Assembly (NCBI GenBank): GCA_902778055.1
Contig: CACYWL010000018.1
Coordinates: forward strand, 1,668 to 65,667
From: an uncultured Eubacteriales bacterium
GTDB lineage: Bacteria; Bacillota; Clostridia; Christensenellales; Aristaeellaceae
Length of the DNA: 64,000 nucleotides
Direction: 5' to 3'
The translations under genes and the position numbers were made by a program. Shown piece by piece: positions 6,799 through 54,351 of this stretch. The notes beneath the pieces are model-generated. The model made no database searches. It was not told the origin of the DNA and worked only from the letters and a program-made list of their open reading frames with translations. Numbering within the stretch: the first letter of the stretch is position 1; every line of letters begins with the position of its first letter.

Positions 6799-8901
6799 TT
6801 ACGCCCCGCGGTATGAAAAGCCGAGCATCGTGATATCGTCGAACTGCTCCGCCCGGCCCGCAAAGGCCTCCACATCCCGGAGCACCGCCCGGAGCGTCTC
6901 CTCCTCGGAAGCGTCCTTCAGCCCGTTCAGCGCGTCCGTAAGCCGCTCCAGTCCGTAGGCCTCCTCCGTTTCGCTGATCGCCTCCGGGATGCCGTCGGTA
7001 TAGACAAACAGCCGGTCTCCCGGGTTCAGATCCATCTCGTACTCCTTCACGGGCACCCCCTCCAGGACCGCCAGTGCCATGCCGTGCGGATCCCTGAAAA
7101 CCTCATAGTTTCCGCCGGCGCGCAGGAGAATCGGGTATTCGTGGCCGGCATTGGCGCAGCGCATCTTTCCGGTCCGCAGATCGATGATTCCCAGCCACAC
7201 GGTCACAAACATTTCGGCTTCGTTTCCCTCGCACAGCGTATCATTCACCCTGGAGAGGATCTGCTTCGGCGACAGGCCGGAACGGGCCGCATTTTTGATC
7301 GTCGTTTTGGACTGCATCATGAACATGGCGCCCGGTACGCTCTTGCCGGATACATCCGCGATGACCAGAGCCATTCTGTCGATATCCAGGAAGAAGAAGT
7401 CATAGAAATCCCCGCCCACTTCCCGGGCCGGATCCATCAGGGCATAGATTTCGAATTCGCTGCGGGGAAAGCTGAAGTTTTTCGGCAGGGCGGACTCCTG
7501 GATCGCGGATGCCAGTTTCAGATCCTTCTCCATTCTCCGCTCCGCCTCGTCGATGTATCCCTTCAGCGCGTCCACGGTCCGGTTGATATCATCCGACAGT
7601 TCGGCAAACTCCAGGGAGGTTCGCACGGAGACCTTTTCCTCCAGATCGCCGGCGGTGATTCTGGCCAGGGATCGGTTCACTTCCCTCAGCTTCTGCACGA
7701 CGATTTTTTCCACCATCAGGGAGATCAGCAGGTAGAGCGTGCTGAAAATCAGGATGTTGGAGAAGATCATATCGTAGATCATGAACTCTCCGCTGGTGCG
7801 GGCCAGGGCGGCGTAGCTCCAGCAGATCAGACAGTACCTGTCCGTCAGCGGAGTACAGACAAAAACGGCTTCCTCGTCTCCCGTCCACTTCAGGCGGCCG
7901 GTAAACGCATCCCGGCCCCGGCGGGCAAGCAGAAAATCCAGTTCCTCCTGCTTCAGCCTGATCTCTTCGGATTCCCCGCCGACGGGCCGGAGGAGCAGGG
8001 AGTCTTCCGTATCCAGCAGCAGAGTGGCGGAATCATACTCCCCGGAGACCAGGCTCTGGTTATTCAGCACCGCTTTCATCGCCTCGATATCGTTTCCCAG
8101 ATCCCGGAAATAATACTTCAGCTCTTCCGTTTTGTTTTCCAGCTCCCGCTTCTGTCTCTGTGCGGAAAGCTGGAGCTGGCTCCCGTAGCCGACCAGTACG
8201 CTGAGGACAAAGAGAATGACCGTCACCGTCAGGAGGCCCCGGCGGAAATGGGCAAACACCGGCGTCCTTTCCTCCGGCTGCAGCGCGCTCTTCCCCGGCC
8301 GGTCATGGGACCGCCGCTGAACCGCCAGCACGCAGAGGGCCACGCCCAGCGCGGTGAATACGATCATCGGAATGGAGCAGACCTGAACCACATAATAGGC
8401 CATGTCAAACGAATCACGGTTCGTCAGCAGCACGGCATACATATGGAAAACCTCCATGGTGGCCCCGGTCATAAAGGCCTGCGCGGGGAGCGGTGTTTTC
8501 CTTTCGTAAACCCAGAGATGCATCGCGGCCGCCAGAAAACCCGCCAGCGCCGTGGACAGCCCGCACGCGACCCGGGTGAAGGAGCCGATCTGCCAGAACT
8601 CCCCGATCAGGTAGCGCTCCACGCCTCCGATCAGCCCCGCCAGAATGCCGGAGAGCGGATCGAAGAGGAGCCCGGCGGCCAGCGGGCCGATATCCCGGAC
8701 ATTGAGCATCATCAGGCCGTACTCGATGCCCAGATGATTCGAGGCAATGCAGCACAGCCCGAAAAACACGCCTGCCGCGACCCTGAGCGGAAGAGTTTTC
8801 TCCCTCTTCTGCCAGAAGCGCCAGGCCAGCGCCGTTGCCGCGACGTACATCGCCACGGCGGCGCTCATTTTCAGAATCATTACCAGGGTCTCCGTGTCCA
8901 T
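6799..8901 (-). CDS. membrane sensor phosphatase: LytS/YhcK-type 5TM receptor domain, HAMP, PP2C/SpoIIE phosphatase
   Basis: Track ORF 6799..8949 trimmed to Met17 (MDTETLVMILK), which has an AAGGAGAG SD. It has about 6 N-terminal TM helices and a HAMP-like segment (LARITAGDLEEKV). The PP2C motifs are GGDFYDF, DVSGKSVPGA and YTDGIPEA. Confidence 0.8.
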   Translation of the reverse strand: MDTETLVMILKMSAAVAMYVAATALAWRFWQKREKTLPLRVAAGVFFGLCCIASNHLGIEYGLMMLNVRDIGPLAAGLLFDPLSGILAGLIGGVERYLIGEFWQIGSFTRVACGLSTALAGFLAAAMHLWVYERKTPLPAQAFMTGATMEVFHMYAVLLTNRDSFDMAYYVVQVCSIPMIVFTALGVALCVLAVQRRSHDRPGKSALQPEERTPVFAHFRRGLLTVTVILFVLSVLVGYGSQLQLSAQRQKRELENKTEELKYYFRDLGNDIEAMKAVLNNQSLVSGEYDSATLLLDTEDSLLLRPVGGESEEIRLKQEELDFLLARRGRDAFTGRLKWTGDEEAVFVCTPLTDRYCLICWSYAALARTSGEFMIYDMIFSNILIFSTLYLLISLMVEKIVVQKLREVNRSLARITAGDLEEKVSVRTSLEFAELSDDINRTVDALKGYIDEAERRMEKDLKLASAIQESALPKNFSFPRSEFEIYALMDPAREVGGDFYDFFFLDIDRMALVIADVSGKSVPGAMFMMQSKTTIKNAARSGLSPKQILSRVNDTLCEGNEAEMFVTVWLGIIDLRTGKMRCANAGHEYPILLRAGGNYEVFRDPHGMALAVLEGVPVKEYEMDLNPGDRLFVYTDGIPEAISETEEAYGLERLTDALNGLKDASEEETLRAVLRDVEAFAGRAEQFDDITMLGFSYRGA

Positions 8902-8938
8902 GAGCCGCCTCTCCTTTGTCCGCGCCGTTCCTACGGGA

Positions 8939-9583
8939 TCAGAAGACAAACAGGTAGATTCCGATCCAGTGGGCCAGCGCGCCGAACAGCACGAAAAAAT
9001 GCCAGATGAAATGCGCGCCCCTGGTTTTTTTCGCGAAGGGTATAATTCCCAGGGTATAAATCACGCCGCCTCCCAGGGTGGCATACAGCAGCGGACGGTT
9101 CGTCCGGAACATCCCGGGCAGAAAGCACAGTCCGCTCCATCCCAGCACGATGTACAGCGTCATATGCAGGGCCTTCAGGCGCCCCGGACCGAAAACGGAA
9201 ACCAGCGTAATGCCTGTCACAATGATCACCCACTGGGCAATGCACAGCGCGATCCCAGCCGTATTTCCCCAGTAAACCAGCCACAGCGGCGTAAAGGTCC
9301 CGCCGATGAGCAGATAGATGGACAGATAGTCAAACCTTCTCCACAGTCGCTTCACCCGGCTGCCCCAGCGGAAGGAATGGTACAGGCAGCTCATCAGGAA
9401 GAGCAGGAAGAGGCAGGCCCCGTACACCGCCGCGGAGAAGACCTTCATCCCCGTGTCGGCCTTCAGCAGAAGGAGCACCGTACCCGCCGCGCTGGCCAGG
9501 GCGCCCACCCCGTGAACCACGGCGTTCCCGACCTCCTCGAGAACGGTTCTCCGGGGCGGTTCGTTCGCTGCGATCCTTTTCAT
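8939..9583 (-). CDS. hemolysin III / PAQR family membrane protein
   Basis: 214 aa with 7 predicted TM helices. Motifs are EEVGNAVVHGVG, SCLYHSF and HFIWHFFVL, typical of the YplQ/TrhA family. Confidence 0.8.
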   Translation of the reverse strand: MKRIAANEPPRRTVLEEVGNAVVHGVGALASAAGTVLLLLKADTGMKVFSAAVYGACLFLLFLMSCLYHSFRWGSRVKRLWRRFDYLSIYLLIGGTFTPLWLVYWGNTAGIALCIAQWVIIVTGITLVSVFGPGRLKALHMTLYIVLGWSGLCFLPGMFRTNRPLLYATLGGGVIYTLGIIPFAKKTRGAHFIWHFFVLFGALAHWIGIYLFVF

Positions 9584-9705: not shown

Positions 9706-11055
<1,350 letters not shown>

Positions 11056-11097
11056 TTACGCTTCTTTCCCAGGCGTCCTCCGCCTGCAACGGGGATT

Positions 11098-11126
11098 ATT
11101 ATGAAAAGCGAAGCCTCCAAAATCAA
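11098..11126 (-). promoter_or_regulatory. sigma-70-type promoter of gdhA
   Basis: The minus strand reads TTGATT, a 17-nt spacer, then CATAAT. A 5'UTR hairpin (caggcg-gagga-cgcctg) and a TAAGGAGG SD follow. Confidence 0.5.
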
Positions 11127-11217
11127 GCGTTTTTCTGTTCTTCCCGTGTTCTTTTGCGACCGGGGAGCGCGGTTTCCGCGGAAGGCCCGGGCGGGATTCC
11201 GGGAACGGAAATGCGGT

Positions 11218-11246
11218 TTGACCGGAAGCGGGCCGGGCGATATAAT
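11218..11246 (+). promoter_or_regulatory. near-consensus sigma-70 promoter of the deaminase-like gene
   Basis: TTGACC, a 17-nt spacer, then TATAAT, lying 31 nt upstream of the ATG at 11277. The SD is GGGGAGGTGG. Confidence 0.6.
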
Positions 11247-11276
11247 CATTCCGAAGCGCGCCGGGGAGGTGGAAGC

Positions 11277-13757
11277 ATGGTTCCCTTTGGGCTTTTTTAT
11301 CTGGATAAGGAAAAGGACATACAGGTGGAGCTGTTCCTGGAAAAGGAGGAGATCAGCTATGTTCTGCGCACGCCGAACCACGGCACGGGCAATCTGATCA
11401 CCAACCTGGCCCTTCTCTGCCGTCTTCCGCTGGACACGGATCCGGACGGCCTGAAGGTGATCCGGGGGAAGCTGCCCTGCTATATTGACGGCCAGAACCG
11501 GGTGCTCTACGTATTCCGGCTTCTGGACACCAAGATTGCGAACATCTATCCGGACGGGCGGATCGAGCGGAAGGCCTCCATTCCCGCCATCGCCAAAACG
11601 CTCATGAGCCAGACGAAGGACTATCGGCTGAGCTTCCGGCAGACCGTCGTGAAAACCTATATCTTCCGGGAATGCAAGTTCCGGACGGATCTTCACACCC
11701 ATATGAACGCAAATCTGGATCCGGATCTGCTGATCGCGCTGGGCATCCATCATCAGATCCGTTATCCCCTGTATTATATCCGGAAGCTGGGTCTCCGCTG
11801 CTCTCCCGCGCAGGAGCAGCTGCTGGCGCGGCGCCGTTCCGCCGTGGCGGAGGCCTTCCGGGATTCCCCGCTGAAGGGAAAATATCTGGACCGGAAAATC
11901 AACGACTCCGTTTTTCTGAATTTTGCCTCCCTGATTCTGGAAAACCCGGAGAACGCCTCCTGGAATCTGCCGCGGATCCGCGCCTCCCTGGCCGTCATGA
12001 AGGACGGGCAGGCCGTCTTTACCAATCTGGAAAAGGTCTATCTGTACCGCTACGTCTTCTGCAAGGGGGTGCCGAGCGAGGATCCGATCGCCCTCTCGGG
12101 GGCGGAAAGCATTCCGGATGAGGATATCGTCACGGCGCTGCGCCGGATGGCGGAGGATCGAAAGCATCCGGTTTTCGGAAGCAACACGCTGCTGGAGGAC
12201 AAGCTGCTCTGGATCGCGCGGAGCTATGCGGCCCGGGGAATTGACTACGCCGAGATCTCCGATACCGCTCTGGTCCGGCCGGAGGCCGCGCCGGAGCTGC
12301 TGGCCCAGGCCCACCGGGTTCTGCCCGCCGTTCGGGCTGAAACCGGCGTCACCCTGCGGTTCCTGGCCGCTCTCCGCCGTACGCCGCTGACCATTCTGAA
12401 GGACAAAATCGATCCGGAGAACACCGTGCGCGAAAATCTCCGGACCCTGAGGGCGGTTTCCGGGGATCCCTATGTCGCGGGCAGCGATATCGTGGGAGAG
12501 GAAATGAACGATATCCGCGATCTGGCCCCCCTGCTCCGGGAGCTGGCCCGGATCGCGGAGGAGGATCCGTCCTTTACCGTCCGGGTGCACGCGGGGGAGA
12601 ACGACAGCCTGCCGGACAATGTCGCCAACGCGGTCCGGTGCGTGCGGGAGGGGCTCCGTCCCGGGCAGCCCATGCCCAGGATGCGCATCGGCCACGGCCT
12701 GTATACCACCAGCCTGTCCTCCGCCAAGGGGCGGGAGCTGCTGCGGGTCCTGCGGGAAAGCGGCACGGTGCTGGAGTTCCAGATTACCTCCAACGTGCGT
12801 CTGAACAATCTCAGCTCCCTGCGGGCTCATCCCCTCCGTCAGTATCTGGCCGCCGGCGTTTCCTGCGTCCAGGGTACGGACGGGGGCGCCCTGTACGGGA
12901 CGGACTCCATCGATGAGCAGCTCGCCCTGGAAAAGATGCTGAATCTGACCCATGAGGAGCTGCTGGCCATGCGGCGCGCCGAGGACCGGGTCCGGGAGGA
13001 CGGGCTCCGCGCTCAGCGGGAGAAGGAGGCGGCCTTCGCAGCCAGTGCCGGCGGGATTTCCGTCGCGGATTATTACAGGAAGCGGATCCTCGCGGAAGCA
13101 AAATCCACGGAGATTCTGATGGAAATGCCCGCCCTGCAGGACAGCTCCCTGCTCTTCGGCTCCCGGATCCGGGAGCTGCCCACGGACCGGGTGCCCGTGA
13201 TTCTGATCGGGGGGTCCTTCAACAACGACCGGCATCTGACCCGCCGGAGGGCCGGAATCTGTGATCTGCTGGATCAGGTCCTCGACCTGTGCGATCCGTC
13301 CAGGATGTTTTTCGTCCTCGGCCACAGTCTTTCCGGCTATGAGCAGTACCTGGCCGAAAAGGCCCGCGGCCGTTTTGACCTTTTCGCCTTTGTCCCCTCC
13401 CGGATGGAAGCGCGGGAAGCGGGCAGGCTGAAGGCTTCCGGAGCGGGCATCCGGGTCTCCATCGAGCCCAGTCCCATGGGGGTCTACAAGAGCTTTTCCT
13501 ACGAGATATTCAAAAGACGCCCGTCCGTGCTGATCGCACTGGACGGGAATTCCTCCGCCGCCAATATGATCCAGGAAGCCCGGAACGGCAAGCGGAAATG
13601 TCATATTTTTGTCTGTGAAAAGGCCCGCGTCCTGCGGGAAAAAGCCCTGGGCCTGCAGGGATACGCTGTCCTGTTCGGGGAGGGGAGCGACCTGGCGGAG
13701 CAGGTCCGGCAGGCGGTGGACATCTGCTATCCCCAGCGGTGGCTCAGAACAGAATAA
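11277..13757 (+). CDS. large adenosine/AMP-deaminase-like (amidohydrolase-fold) protein with an N-terminal unknown domain and a C-terminal LOG/SLOG-like Rossmann domain
   Basis: Track ORF 11154..13757 trimmed to Met42 (MVPFGLFYLDKEK) on SD and promoter grounds, giving 826 aa. Deaminase metal and catalytic motifs appear in canonical order: DLHTH (138-142), VHAGE (437-441), IGHG (471-474), ITSN (503-506) and GTDGG (533-537). C-terminal residues about 636-815 carry VILIGGS, LGHSLSGYE and ALDGNSSAANMIQEA, resembling the LOG/SLOG glycine-rich and PGGxGTxxE-type motifs. Confidence 0.7.
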   Translation: MVPFGLFYLDKEKDIQVELFLEKEEISYVLRTPNHGTGNLITNLALLCRLPLDTDPDGLKVIRGKLPCYIDGQNRVLYVFRLLDTKIANIYPDGRIERKASIPAIAKTLMSQTKDYRLSFRQTVVKTYIFRECKFRTDLHTHMNANLDPDLLIALGIHHQIRYPLYYIRKLGLRCSPAQEQLLARRRSAVAEAFRDSPLKGKYLDRKINDSVFLNFASLILENPENASWNLPRIRASLAVMKDGQAVFTNLEKVYLYRYVFCKGVPSEDPIALSGAESIPDEDIVTALRRMAEDRKHPVFGSNTLLEDKLLWIARSYAARGIDYAEISDTALVRPEAAPELLAQAHRVLPAVRAETGVTLRFLAALRRTPLTILKDKIDPENTVRENLRTLRAVSGDPYVAGSDIVGEEMNDIRDLAPLLRELARIAEEDPSFTVRVHAGENDSLPDNVANAVRCVREGLRPGQPMPRMRIGHGLYTTSLSSAKGRELLRVLRESGTVLEFQITSNVRLNNLSSLRAHPLRQYLAAGVSCVQGTDGGALYGTDSIDEQLALEKMLNLTHEELLAMRRAEDRVREDGLRAQREKEAAFAASAGGISVADYYRKRILAEAKSTEILMEMPALQDSSLLFGSRIRELPTDRVPVILIGGSFNNDRHLTRRRAGICDLLDQVLDLCDPSRMFFVLGHSLSGYEQYLAEKARGRFDLFAFVPSRMEAREAGRLKASGAGIRVSIEPSPMGVYKSFSYEIFKRRPSVLIALDGNSSAANMIQEARNGKRKCHIFVCEKARVLREKALGLQGYAVLFGEGSDLAEQVRQAVDICYPQRWLRTE

Positions 13758-13844
13758 GCCCCCGGGCTCCCGGCCCGGCGGCTTTTCCGTTCCGCCTTTC
13801 GGCGCCTATGGGATCCGTCCGCGGAAGGCGGCCGGTTTTTCCTT

Positions 13845-14297
13845 TTATTCCTGCTCCAGCAGGCCGTGAAGCAGCTCGTAAAGCCGGGCCGCGTCCTCCG
13901 GAGAAATCCGGACGCATTCTCCCAGCTGTTTCGGGATCTCCTTCACCTGATCGCGAAGGTTCCATCCCTTCTCTGTCAGGCAGATCTTCACCACCCGCTC
14001 ATCCTCCGGATGGCGGTGCCGGGTCAGATAGCCCTCCTGCTCCAGCCTCTTGATCATCGGCGTGATCGTACCGTTGTCCAGGTACAGGCGCCTGCAGAGA
14101 TCTCCCACCGCGGTTTCTCCGTACTCCCAGAGGCAGAGAAAAACGATGTACTGGGTATAGGTCAGCCCCAGCGGCTTCAGATAGGGCGTATAGGAATTCA
14201 CGATCCGCCTCGCCGCCGCGTACAGCGGAAAGCACAGCTGGTTCTCCAGCATCAGCTGCGGATAGGTCTCCAGGGTGGTCACGGGTTCCCCGTTCAT
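13845..14297 (-). CDS. ohrR: MarR-family organic-hydroperoxide-sensing repressor (OhrR-like)
   Basis: Track ORF 13845..14327 trimmed to MNGEP (GGGGAGAAG SD). LENQLCFPLYAAARR (sensing Cys) and LYLDNGTITPMIKRLEQEGYL closely parallel Bacillus OhrR (LENQLCFLLYA, LYLDSGTLTPMLKRMEQQGL). Confidence 0.75.
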   Translation of the reverse strand: MNGEPVTTLETYPQLMLENQLCFPLYAAARRIVNSYTPYLKPLGLTYTQYIVFLCLWEYGETAVGDLCRRLYLDNGTITPMIKRLEQEGYLTRHRHPEDERVVKICLTEKGWNLRDQVKEIPKQLGECVRISPEDAARLYELLHGLLEQE

Positions 14298-14411
14298 CTT
14301 CTTCTCCCCTTCATGCGGAACCCGCACCCCGTCCCGGGGTGCGGGAAAACACTTCCGTCGGACGGCCGTCCCCGGAGGAAACGCTCCCTTCCGTTCCGGC
14401 CCTTCCGTGTT

Positions 14412-14726
14412 TTACAGATTGCTCCTGATCCAGCCGGTCACAGCCGCCTGGGGCTTGAAACCGATGGACTGGCTCACGAATTCGCCCTTCTTCATCATCA
14501 CCAGGCAGGGCACGCTCTGCACGCGGTACTCCGCCGCCAGCTCCGGGCATTCATCCACATCCACGCTGTAGAAGCTGACCTGGCCCTCCAGCTCCCCGCT
14601 GACCGCCTCCAGCACCGGCGCCAGCATCCTGCAGGGCCCGCACCAGGTGGCGTTGAAATCGACCACGGCCGCGTCCGCTGCCTTTGCATCCTTCAGGAAT
14701 TCCTCCGCATTTACCTTTCTGACCAT
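14412..14726 (-). CDS. trxA: thioredoxin
   Basis: 104 aa with the WCGPC active site. Confidence 0.9.
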   Translation of the reverse strand: MVRKVNAEEFLKDAKAADAAVVDFNATWCGPCRMLAPVLEAVSGELEGQVSFYSVDVDECPELAAEYRVQSVPCLVMMKKGEFVSQSIGFKPQAAVTGWIRSNL

Positions 14727-14796
14727 GTTCTTTTCCTCCGTTCTTTCTGTTTCCCGGCAGGCCCGGGGTTATCCCCGCTCCCGTTCCGGCGTTGTT

Positions 14797-15654
14797 TTAT
14801 CTGGCGGCGCTCAGGTAGCTGACCGCGCTCAGAGCCGCAATATTGCCCTCCCCCGCCGCCTTGATGTACTGATAGGGGGGGCCGACGATATCCCCGCAGG
14901 CGAAAAGGCCGGGCAGACTGCTCTCCATGCTGCGGTTCACCCTGACATGAGGGCCTTCCGTTTCCAGCCCCGGCACCAGCTGGCCGGGGGCCACCGCGTC
15001 GCGCAGGACGAAGACCGCGTGCACGGGATACTCTCCCGCGCCGGTCCTCAGAAGCATTCCGTCCTCCGTTCTCTCCAGTGCGGCGACCTTCTCCGGAATC
15101 ACCTTCACGTTCTCCGGCAGGCTTCCGGTTTCCCCGTACGTCGGGAAATACAGCACCTCCGGGCAGATCTCGCTCAGGAAGGCAGCTTCCGCCTCCTCCT
15201 TCGCGCTGAAGCCCACAACGGCTACTTTCTTCCCCCGGACCAGCGCTGCGTCGCAGGTCGCGCAGTAGCTGACCCCGTGGCCCAGGGCTTCCTCTTCTCC
15301 GGGCAGCGATTTGCCCTGCACGACACCGGTCGCGAGGATGACGCAGGTGGCTTCGATCATTTTCTCCCCGGCCTGCAGCGCGTAATAATCCCCCATGGCA
15401 TAAACCGCGCTGACCCGTTCCTCCGTAATCCCGATGCCCAGCTGATCCAGATGCCGCTGAAAAGCCAGCGCAAGGTCCTCCCCCTTGACCGCGGGAAAGC
15501 CCAGATAATTCTGGATCTCATGGGCTTTGATCAGCTTCCTGCTCAGTTCCTTCGAGCCCAGCAGAATCACCCGCTTGTTCCGGATCGTGGCGGTGATGGC
15601 CGCCTCCAGTCCGGCCGGGCCGGTTCCGATAATGGCGATATCATAGCGTTCCAT
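14797..15654 (-). CDS. trxB: thioredoxin-reductase homolog lacking NAD(P)H-binding motifs (ferredoxin-dependent FFTR-like)
   Basis: 285 aa. It has the FAD fold IIGTGPAGLEAA and the redox-active CATCD. The positions of GGGxxA and HRRxxxR are occupied by VVGFSAKEEAEAAFL and YFPTYGETG. Confidence 0.8.
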   Translation of the reverse strand: MERYDIAIIGTGPAGLEAAITATIRNKRVILLGSKELSRKLIKAHEIQNYLGFPAVKGEDLALAFQRHLDQLGIGITEERVSAVYAMGDYYALQAGEKMIEATCVILATGVVQGKSLPGEEEALGHGVSYCATCDAALVRGKKVAVVGFSAKEEAEAAFLSEICPEVLYFPTYGETGSLPENVKVIPEKVAALERTEDGMLLRTGAGEYPVHAVFVLRDAVAPGQLVPGLETEGPHVRVNRSMESSLPGLFACGDIVGPPYQYIKAAGEGNIAALSAVSYLSAAR

Positions 15655-15706
15655 GATCCGGTCTCCTTTTTTCCAACGGTGGCGCGATTTCAGCGCGGTC
15701 CTTTTC

Positions 15707-16249
15707 TTACAGCAGGCTCTCCACGCAGGCCCGGACGTCCTTCATGTCGGCGGTGGGCTCAAACCGGGCCACCACCTCGCCCTGCCGGTTCACCACAAAC
15801 TTGGTGAAGTTCCATTTGATGTCCGGATTGCTCTTGTAGTTCTTGTCAATCTTCTTCAGCATGATGCCCATCGCCAGCGCGGCCGGACCGTGGCCGAAGC
15901 CTTCAAAGCCCTTCTGGCTCTTCAGATAGGCAAACAGCGGCAGCTGGTTCTCCCCGTTGACATCGCTTTTCTTCATCTGCGGGAACTGGGTGTTGTACTT
16001 CAGCGTGCAGAATTCGTGGATTTCCTCGTCCGTTCCGGGGGTCTGGCCCGCGAACTGGTTGCAGGGCACGTCGATGATCTCCAGCCCCTTCTCATGATCC
16101 GCCTCGTACATGGCTTCCAGCTCCTTGTAATGCGGAGTAAAGCCGCAGCCGGTCGCGGTATTGACAATCAGAAGCACCTTGCCCTCATAGTTCTTCAGGG
16201 AAATCTCCTCCCCGGCGGGAGTGGTCACGCTGTAATCATAAACGCTCAT
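15707..16249 (-). CDS. gpx: glutathione-peroxidase-family thiol peroxidase (Cys type)
   Basis: 180 aa with VNTATGCGFT (peroxidatic Cys, not Sec), PCNQFAGQ and WNFTKF. Confidence 0.9.
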   Translation of the reverse strand: MSVYDYSVTTPAGEEISLKNYEGKVLLIVNTATGCGFTPHYKELEAMYEADHEKGLEIIDVPCNQFAGQTPGTDEEIHEFCTLKYNTQFPQMKKSDVNGENQLPLFAYLKSQKGFEGFGHGPAALAMGIMLKKIDKNYKSNPDIKWNFTKFVVNRQGEVVARFEPTADMKDVRACVESLL

Positions 16250-53436: not shown

Positions 53437-54351
53437 TCAGAACAGCGCCTCCACAAAATCCTTCGCGTTGAAGGGCTGCAGATCATCAATTCCCTCGCCG
53501 ACGCCGATGTACCAGACCGGCACCTCCAGCTCCTGTCGGATGGCCAGCGCAATGCCGCCCTTGGCCGTGCCGTCCAGCTTGGTCAGGATGATGCCGCCGA
53601 TTTCCGCGACCTCCTTGAAGGCCCGGGCCTGCTGCAGGCCGTTTTGCCCGGTCGTCGCGTCCAGCACAAGGATGCATCGGGTGTCCGCCTCCGGATACTC
53701 CCGGTCGATGACCCGGCGCATCTTGTTCAGCTCGTCCATCAGGTTCTTCTTGTTGTGCAGCCGCCCGGCGGTATCCACGATCAGCAGATCCGCCCCCTGG
53801 GCCTTCGCGCTCTGGATGGCGTCATAGACCACGGCCGCCGGGTCCGCTCCCTCCTCGTGCTTCACGATCGGCACCCTGGCCCGCTCAGCCCAGACCGTCA
53901 GCTGCTCCGCCGCCGCCGCGCGGAAGGTATCCCCCGCGCAGAGCATGACACGCCGGCCGATCGTCTGGAAGCGCAGGGCCAGCTTGCCGATGGTCGTCGT
54001 CTTGCCGACCCCGTTGACCCCGACCATCAGCATCACCATCGGCCATCTCAGCGGCGGACGGGGAACATCCATCTGCTCGACCATGATCTCCTTCAGCATT
54101 TCCCGCGCGGCGGCCGCGTCCTTCACATTCCCCGCCTTCACGCGTCTGCGGAGCTCGTCGGTGATCACCGTGGTCGCCTTCAGGCCGCAGTCCGCCATCA
54201 CGAGGATGTCCTCCAGCTCCTCGTAGAAATCCTCGTCCACCTTCCGGTTTTCCCGGACCATCTCGTCGACCTTTTCGGTCATATTTCCCCGGGTTTTGCT
54301 CAGCCCCTGCCGAAGACGGGCAAAAAGGCCCTTTTTCTTCTCGTCGCTCAC
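53437..54351 (-). CDS. ftsY: signal recognition particle receptor FtsY
   Basis: GTPase motifs are GVNGVGKTTTIGKLA, DTAGR and TKLDGTAKGG. The start is set at the GTG of codon 45 (VSDEKKKGLFARL) with a GGGAGG SD. A good promoter lies inside the longer track ORF. Confidence 0.9.
   Translation of the reverse strand: MSDEKKKGLFARLRQGLSKTRGNMTEKVDEMVRENRKVDEDFYEELEDILVMADCGLKATTVITDELRRRVKAGNVKDAAAAREMLKEIMVEQMDVPRPPLRWPMVMLMVGVNGVGKTTTIGKLALRFQTIGRRVMLCAGDTFRAAAAEQLTVWAERARVPIVKHEEGADPAAVVYDAIQSAKAQGADLLIVDTAGRLHNKKNLMDELNKMRRVIDREYPEADTRCILVLDATTGQNGLQQARAFKEVAEIGGIILTKLDGTAKGGIALAIRQELEVPVWYIGVGEGIDDLQPFNAKDFVEALF

Follow-up and report, generated by a model that had tools for sequence, protein, structure and literature searches.

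What might be the function of a protein in which a barrel of the adenosine deaminase (ADA) family is joined to a domain of the type that senses signalling nucleotides? This question is raised by a gene on a 64,000-nucleotide stretch of DNA from an uncultured Eubacteriales bacterium, which we call the window (the whole stretch that was analysed). The gene, here named the deaminase-SLOG gene, occupies positions 11277-13757 of the plus strand and is a complete coding sequence of 826 amino acids (aa) plus a stop codon. A prediction made from the letters of the window had described its product as an orphan deaminase fused to a LOG/SLOG-like domain. We classify the protein as a sensor-fused variant of the ADA-family enzymes, with a three-domain architecture that is fixed in its family. 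The reading that we favour, tentatively and with somewhat less than even confidence, is that it is a stand-alone deaminase acting on adenine nucleosides or nucleotides and regulated by binding of a ligand to the SLOG domain.

Each of the two modules has a well-known place in nucleotide signalling and immunity: in Cad1 and RADAR the ADA barrel deaminates ATP, and SLOG sensors act in ThsA and in TRPM channels. No description of an ADA-SLOG fusion was found in the literature searched; the original SLOG survey lay outside this search, and a brief earlier mention is possible. Nor did that literature contain a study of the family, which is large, has one fixed architecture and is present in at least 565 species genomes. 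Working out the family would show whether SLOG domains regulate enzymes beyond Thoeris. The family might turn out to be the bacterial equivalent of the allosteric AMP deaminase, or an immune effector encoded by a single gene. Such work would also define the target of an ADA active site in which glycine replaces the Asp that binds N7 of the purine, and it would correct the annotations of "adenosine deaminase" and "hypothetical protein" that these proteins carry across rumen and gut genomes.

The deaminase core

The core of the protein is a TIM barrel of the adenosine deaminase family at aa 136-570 (11682-12986, plus strand), as delimited by Pfam PF00962, PDB alignments, Foldseek and conservation. 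The Pfam A_deaminase model (PF00962) matched aa 346-565 (E 2.6e-15) with 56.8 bits, the cut-off being 27, and the same annotation is present among the precomputed annotations of all 120 best homologues. The NCBIfam adenosine-deaminase equivalogs (TIGR01430/PRK09358) gave 48 bits at best against a cut-off of 216.55, and the remaining NCBIfam equivalog models gave 19-42 bits against cut-offs of 412-549. Because the Pfam score is above its cut-off and the equivalog scores are far below theirs, the protein is, judged by its sequence, a member of the ADA family and not the housekeeping Add. It shares with Add/ADA enzymes the C-terminal half of the barrel, which aligns with them at HAGE, IGHG, SN and TD, and the fold, as ADA structures were the best Foldseek matches of the full AlphaFold2 (AF2) model (E 2e-6). 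Unlike these enzymes, which are about 330-370 aa long, the 826-aa protein has an insertion of about 100 aa after HxH, a Gly for the second Asp of TDD, and two extra domains.

Every motif listed in the original prediction was found by translation at the residues given there, as was the length of 826 aa. In the core these are DLHTH (138-142), VHAGE (437-441), IGHG (471-474), ITSN (503-506) and GTDGG (533-537); in the C-terminal domain they are VILIGGS (641-647), LGHSLSGYE (681-689) and ALDGNSSAANMIQEA (754-768). The closest PDB relatives by sequence are the Plasmodium and Salmonella adenosine deaminases. In the alignments to the Plasmodium ADA structures VHAGE, RIGHG and SN coincide with their counterparts, and GTDGG is placed on SDDP. 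The latter alignment identifies D535 as the metal-binding Asp and Gly536 as the replacement of the second Asp, a substitution that the prediction had also noticed. The sole PDB match of the DLHTH segment was the HxH strand of Pseudomonas aeruginosa ADA (3ou8), where H140 and H142 lie on both His residues with an E value of 0.35.

The conservation of these residues was examined in 74 full-length copies, taken from the genomes of different species. All 74 have H140, H142, H438, E441, H473 and G536, and all but one (73) have D535. Distant AT-rich members of the family keep DLHCH, DLHNH or DVHSH, plus GTDGYG. That the catalytic residues are kept both in these copies and in the distant members indicates that the catalytic machinery is under selection. 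The predicted amidohydrolase core of ADA type, with its metal and catalytic residues, is thus upheld by the Pfam match, the PDB alignments and the conservation, with the HxH strand placed at the E value given above. From the sequence we infer that the central barrel is catalytically competent.

The spacing between H142 and H438 is 296 residues, close to the value of about 300 aa that had been predicted between HxH and HAGE. Position 113 of the Pfam profile corresponds to residue 346, which implies that about 100 extra residues follow HxH in the first half of the barrel. The insertion lies within aa 143-345 and was modelled by AF2 with a predicted local distance difference test (pLDDT) score below 50. 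No significant PDB profile match was obtained for the first half of the barrel or the insertion. In the 74 copies 36% of the positions of aa 136-270 are invariant.

This spacing had led to a comparison with AMP deaminases and with RdrB of the RADAR system. The comparison holds for size, since RdrB is a large ADA-family protein of about 800 aa that deaminates ATP and dATP (PMC9994260), but not for kinship. The protein had no RdrB match in PADLOC and no match to Pfam AMP_deaminase at E ≤ 1, PF00962 alone being reported. Its fold match to the RdrB structure 8hr7 was poor (template modelling (TM) score 0.18, probability 0.47-0.63), the accessory domains differ, and neither the window proteins nor 149 flanking proteins of other loci included an RdrA. 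Kinship with RdrB or AMP deaminase was therefore rejected.

The C-terminal SLOG-fold domain

The C-terminal domain, aa 636-820 (13182-13736, plus strand), was modelled alone by AF2 with 43 sequences. The model has a pLDDT of 90.5 and a predicted TM score of 0.86, and contains, in about 190 aa, seven strands alternating with helices. In a Foldseek search against the PDB, ranks 1-26 consisted only of the N-terminal domains of TRPM4, TRPM8 and TRPM2, Helicobacter pylori DprA, the Chlamydomonas molybdenum cofactor (Moco) carrier protein and Neisseria meningitidis YgdH. LOG proteins, including that of Corynebacterium glutamicum, were at ranks 29 and 46. The SLOG matches had probabilities of 0.95-1.0, the top ones of 0.99-1.0, and a best E value of 1.8e-5. 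Since the SLOG superfamily is composed of just these families, the assignment is supported at the level of the fold, and the model supports a SLOG-superfamily fold for the C-terminal domain. The best structural matches are the N-terminal (MHR1/2) SLOG domains of TRPM channels, led by TRPM4 (9mt8, E 1.8e-5, query-normalised TM 0.53). According to their titles, several of the matched entries are complexes with ATP (TRPM4) or ADP-ribose (TRPM2), ligands that sit in the SLOG domain. The TRPM domains differ from ours in that they are eukaryotic ion-channel modules, and the sequence identity is 10-13%.

At the sequence level the domain had no Pfam match, LOG and SLOG models included (E ≤ 10, any of the 43 members), and no match in the PDB profile search. 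An exhaustive phmmer search with the domain against 1.84 billion representatives returned 117 proteins of the same family, mostly fragments. All of the matches that were checked and were long enough to tell carry an ADA domain. Because this SLOG domain is seen only in fusion with an ADA deaminase, the two domains are likely to act together.

The residues that are invariant in the SLOG domain throughout the family are G682, E689, Y737, K738, F745, G757 and A768, and the conserved basic residues are R726, K746, R747, R748 and K789. The conserved loops read GGSFN, GHxLxGYE, (F)VP, IEPSxMGxYKS and DGNSxxANxxQ. In the domain model the invariant G682, E689, Y737, K738 and G757, together with the conserved basic residues, are placed in the loops that follow the strands. 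These loops correspond to the usual ligand crevice of the SLOG fold, and the putative ligand is of the nucleotide type.

Weak Toprim matches were also obtained, with Toprim_2 in 20 and Toprim_4 in eight of the 43 members (best E about 0.01). We attribute them to the ALDGNSAGAN segment (aa 754-768, 13536-13580), and a Toprim assignment was rejected because no match reaches the threshold, the sequences lack the Glu and DxD of Toprim, and the fold search points to SLOG.

Family, genomic context and proposed function

A search with the full-length protein found 5601 proteins at E ≤ 0.001, a set that probably includes ordinary deaminases. The best 120 of the 5601 are all 825-846 aa long and at least 70% identical, and homologues are annotated as "adenosine deaminase" or "hypothetical protein". 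When one genome per species was scanned, at least 565 species genomes were found to encode a relative. The term "orphan" in the original prediction therefore applies to the gene in so far as it stands alone in its neighbourhood, but not in the sense of an ORFan. The best 80 loci are mostly from the rumen or gut and belong to Clostridia, Lachnospiraceae, Ruminococcus, Erysipelotrichaceae and Atopobiaceae/Coriobacteriaceae. Identity between groups is at least 58% throughout, and is 58-62% between families of Bacillota. The copies from Atopobiaceae/Coriobacteriaceae of the Actinomycetota (L009-L027) are 69% identical to the Clostridia group of the query (the window, L006, L008, L018 and L082). 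The value of 69% as compared to 58-62% elsewhere indicates one transfer between phyla, which apparently took place in the microbial community of rumen and gut. Two contigs of the Lachnospiraceae metagenome-assembled genome RGIG5770 each carry a copy (L035:8923-11358 and L040:1773-4211), the two being 95% identical. This double copy could represent a duplication or a mixture of strains in the bin.

The deaminase-SLOG gene is monocistronic and has no partner genes. Its neighbours in the window are gdhA and genes for a MarR regulator, a thioredoxin, a thioredoxin-reductase-like flavoprotein and a glutathione peroxidase, which agrees with the predicted gdhA and redox operon. The latter four form a co-directional redox cluster on the minus strand (13845-16249) that converges on the deaminase-SLOG gene. 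In other genomes this cluster is not associated with the gene. An all-against-all comparison of open reading frames (ORFs) from about 80 loci revealed no conserved neighbour. The largest neighbour cluster was a generic ABC ATPase, present in 14 of these loci at varying distances, and only 17 of 96 pairs of loci with 85-90% protein identity shared any neighbour. A contig with a 99% identical copy (L085) has the same neighbours as the window, whereas the neighbours on a contig with an 80% identical copy differ. We annotated 149 flanking proteins from 40 loci. Pfam assigned them to diverse housekeeping families (transporters, dehydrogenases and regulators), and purine genes accounted for three of them (PNP_UDP_1 twice and adenylosuccinate synthetase once). 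Neither defence nor purine genes are enriched around the gene.

In the mechanism that we propose, the protein would be a constitutively transcribable, stand-alone enzyme of three domains. Its ADA TIM barrel would hydrolytically deaminate an adenine compound, most likely a nucleotide or nucleoside, to the corresponding inosine compound. The crevice formed by the SLOG loops would bind a phosphorylated ligand of the nucleotide type. Binding would tune the deaminase allosterically, probably through a rearrangement of the oligomer or of the linker, so that the SLOG domain would be regulatory rather than catalytic. This regulation is modelled, by analogy, on the gating of Cad1 by its CARF domain and of ThsA by its SLOG domain. 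Physiologically, the enzyme would more probably serve purine salvage or regulate the pool of purine nucleotides in anaerobes of the gut and rumen than belong to a multi-gene defence system. A metabolic or homeostatic role is favoured over immunity by the genomic context and by the strong conservation of the protein.

Several points weigh against a ligand-regulated deaminase with such a role. The substrate cannot be read from the sequence, and the replacement of the N7-contacting Asp by Gly536 may mean that the substrate or its mode of binding is unusual. The alignment of HxH to ADA is not significant when taken alone, and barrel residues 98-267, which include HxH, were modelled at a pLDDT below 50. 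The invariant E689, Y737, K738 and D756 of the SLOG domain could equally well form a second active site. The rapid loss of synteny and the inter-phylum transfer are consistent with an accessory gene, a category to which many defence genes belong. Furthermore, the gene has no link to purine genes, and the lack of such synteny means that an ordinary salvage enzyme is not supported by the context either.

The alternative that survives best is a single-gene, ligand-gated effector of immunity or abortive infection. Its SLOG domain would sense a nucleotide signal that is derived from the infection or encoded in trans, and its barrel would convert ATP and dATP to ITP and dITP, like Cad1 or RADAR. We consider this unlikely, although the architecture parallels both a Rossmannoid sensor with ADA, as in Cad1, and an effector with SLOG, as in ThsA. 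In Cad1 a Rossmann-like CARF sensor gates the ADA domain (PMC11645235), and in ThsA the SLOG domain binds the signalling nucleotide 3'cADPR and gates a SIR2 enzyme (PMC11204291). Like Cad1 (PDB 9ebt and 9ubl), the 826-aa protein combines in one polypeptide an ADA barrel and a Rossmann-like domain that would sense a nucleotide ligand, and the metal and catalytic His, Glu and Asp are conserved in both. The PADLOC CARF_ADA model matched it weakly (E 1.7e-6) over the ADA part only (model positions 333-571 of 605), and the Cad1 chains in the PDB matched weakly as well (E 0.034). However, ordinary ADA is the closer match of the ADA part, with 56.8 bits as compared to 25 bits for the Cad1 model. The CARF domain of Cad1 is N-terminal whereas the SLOG fold here is C-terminal, and our protein has an additional N-terminal domain and the insertion of about 100 aa. 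Cad1 belongs to type III CRISPR systems; no CRISPR or cas genes were found near the deaminase-SLOG gene. ThsA likewise carries a C-terminal SLOG-superfamily domain behind an enzyme domain, but that enzyme is SIR2 rather than an ADA barrel. No ThsB/TIR gene was found nearby, neither the protein nor its neighbours matched a Thoeris model, ThsA structures are not among the top 50 fold matches, and no match to STALD or another SLOG model of Pfam was obtained.

The genomic evidence on an immune effector is divided. In its favour are the variable neighbourhood with its fast decay of synteny, the evident transfer between Bacillota and Atopobiaceae, and the orientation of the gene, which is the sole plus-strand gene within roughly the first 27 kb of the window, all other genes called there being on the minus strand. 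On the other side, no cas, CARF, TIR, cyclase, RdrA, Thoeris or other defence genes were found near the gene in the window. PADLOC gave no defence system for the 45 other window proteins, only generic ATPase, HTH and metabolic cross-hits, and nine of the ten nearest neighbours had no match. The tenth, the MarR protein (13845-14327, minus strand), matched "CARF3--CARF_TM" weakly (E 5.9e-6) at the C-terminal end of the model only. We infer that this end is the winged helix-turn-helix region of the model and that MarR is not a CARF protein. The 149 flanking proteins from the 40 loci also gave generic cross-hits only and no defence system, which agrees with the points that the prediction had raised against a defence island. 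The deaminase-SLOG gene was not found in plasmid, phage or IMG/VR viral collections, and plasmids yielded ordinary add only. The whole protein, the putative sensor included, is highly conserved, which is unusual for fast-evolving defence sensors, and the near-consensus candidate promoter suggests steady expression. Taken together, the genomic context is mildly against a defence role.

A broader form of this idea is that the family represents a new class of stand-alone, signal-gated adenine-nucleotide deaminases. Here the SLOG domain would sense a second messenger or alarmone, derived from infection or stress, and would release the deaminase to turn ATP and dATP, or a signalling nucleotide, into the inosine counterpart. 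Such a protein would do with a SLOG domain what Cad1 does with CARF, and would need no CRISPR, TIR or cyclase partner encoded nearby; the N-terminal domain may be a second sensor. This, too, appears improbable to us, to about the same degree as the immune effector.

We regard as rather more doubtful that the protein is a bifunctional enzyme of purine-nucleotide catabolism. In that case the barrel would deaminate AMP or adenosine, and the SLOG domain would act in the manner of LOG or PpnN, as an N-glycosidase or phosphoribohydrolase that yields ribose-5-phosphate together with hypoxanthine or adenine. In favour of this reading, nucleic acid is turned over on a large scale by rumen organisms. 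The domain shares with LOG and PpnN (YgdH) the seven-stranded SLOG fold, with matches to LOG in complex with AMP (5zbl), to 5its and to YgdH/PpnN (9us2), as well as glycine-rich loops after strands 1 and 2. Aligned by eye, its strand order and loops parallel those of the type-I LOG encoded at locus L035: GGS, the G-rich loop, (V)P, M-x-x-[R/Y]-K, and ALPGG against ALDGN. The invariant E689, Y737, K738 and D756 could serve catalysis.

The sequence comparisons argue otherwise. A LOG profile was built from the L035 protein, its homologues and E. coli PpnN. The hhalign probability was 0.3% for this LOG profile against a broadened profile of the C-terminal domain, and 0.2% in a comparison of the domain with E. 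coli PpnN, and there was no Pfam LOG match. By strand order, and aligned by eye against the L035 protein and a LOG alignment, the equivalent of the LOG helix M-x-E-R-K is M-G-V-Y-K and that of PGGxGTxxE is DGNSSAANM (DGNSxxANM in the family). Both LOG catalytic residues are thus apparently missing by this alignment, and the position of the catalytic Arg appears to be taken by Tyr737. The best fold matches, moreover, are to non-enzymatic SLOG domains (TRPM, DprA and the Moco carrier protein). Membership in the LOG family (PF03641 Lysine_decarbox/TIGR00730) was rejected for the lack of a profile match, the hhalign probability of 0.3% and the absence of PGGxGTxxE. Of the predicted LOG/SLOG module of the PGGxGTxxE type, the SLOG fold therefore stands and the LOG assignment does not. 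The absence of the LOG signature and of similarity to the LOG profile favours ligand binding by this domain over hydrolysis of the LOG type, as the ligand-regulated deaminase would require. The L035 LOG itself is a genuine type-I enzyme (TIGR00730, PGGTGTLEE) at L035:729-1259 on the minus strand, about 8 kb upstream of the deaminase-SLOG gene. As it was found in one Lachnospiraceae locus only, its proximity is probably coincidental.

There is a similarly small chance that the substrate of the deaminase is non-canonical, for example an adenine nucleotide altered by N6 modification, as a 7-deaza derivative or in some other way, or a signalling nucleotide such as cAMP or ADPR. The change of Asp to Gly would then reshape the pocket for the purine, with the SLOG or N-terminal domain helping to hold the substrate. 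The second Asp of TDD (Asp296 of mouse ADA) is in contact with N7 of the purine, and the structure of its D296A mutant (1FKX) is among the fold matches of the full model. Ordinary family members have Asp, whereas Gly536 is found in all 74 copies and in distant members, so that the change at 536 is a hallmark of the family. The conserved insertion, lying together with the N-terminal domain around the barrel entrance, and the adenosine-deaminase equivalog score of 48 against a cut-off of 216 point in the same direction. Nevertheless, the argument is a purely negative one with no positive pointer to a particular substrate, and all of the remaining catalytic residues are canonical.

Gene layout, flanking domains and other observations

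The start Met of the deaminase-SLOG protein is common to the N-termini of homologues (consensus MEAFGHFYLDKEKD), and an in-frame TTG upstream at 11154 is not the start. A Shine-Dalgarno sequence, GGAGG, was read at 11265-11269 (plus strand), 7 nt upstream of the ATG. The predicted promoter, TTGACC-17-TATAAT, was recovered by a consensus scan at 11218-11246 (plus strand) as a candidate sigma-70-like site with 11 of 12 positions. It is a pattern match only, and two such sites were observed in the scanned 3-kb region as compared to 0.7 expected from shuffles. Downstream, the same kind of scan gave a candidate terminator-like hairpin with a T-rich tail at 13815-13841 (plus strand), 58 nt after the stop codon. 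The hairpin is weak, with a 5-bp stem, and its end coordinate of 13841 takes in the 10-base tail printed by the scan. The GC content at the three codon positions is 0.65/0.43/0.79, similar to that of the window genes, which bears out the predicted native composition. An ORF of 854 aa runs antisense to the gene (11040-13604, minus strand) and is most likely a high-GC artefact of a kind found across the whole window. It was judged so because the plus frame has the codon-position GC of a real gene, the Pfam match and a large set of homologues.

The N-terminal domain, aa 1-95 (11277-11561, plus strand), is beta-rich, with eight short strands and one helix in the AF2 model (pLDDT 52-80), and 21% of its positions are invariant in the 74 copies. 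The pre-barrel segment that follows, aa 96-135 (11562-11681, plus strand), reads ERKASIPAIxKTLMSQTKDY...KTYI. It is the most conserved stretch of the protein, with a mean top-residue frequency of 0.86 and 35% of positions invariant, and was modelled by AF2 with low confidence. Residues 1-135 had neither a Pfam nor a PDB profile match, in keeping with the statement in the prediction that this domain could not be placed, and a fold search of the BFVD viral structures with the full model returned nothing significant. Between the barrel and the SLOG domain lies a helical linker, aa 571-635 (12987-13181, plus strand), with long AF2 helices at 559-591 and 596-609. The linker is poorly conserved, with no invariant position and a mean top-residue frequency of 0.46.

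Two further observations were made elsewhere in the window. Two short plus-strand ORFs at 53468-54226 have an atypical codon-position GC of about 0.38/0.66/0.90 and are probably in the wrong frame or strand, or lie in a non-coding region. A membrane sensor phosphatase of 716 aa with 5TMR-LYT, HAMP and SpoIIE/PP2C domains is intact at 6799-8949 (minus strand). On the contig with the 99% identical copy the same phosphatase is split between two called ORFs, one of 541 and one of 149 aa (L085:1554-3625), which suggests a frameshift or a strain difference.

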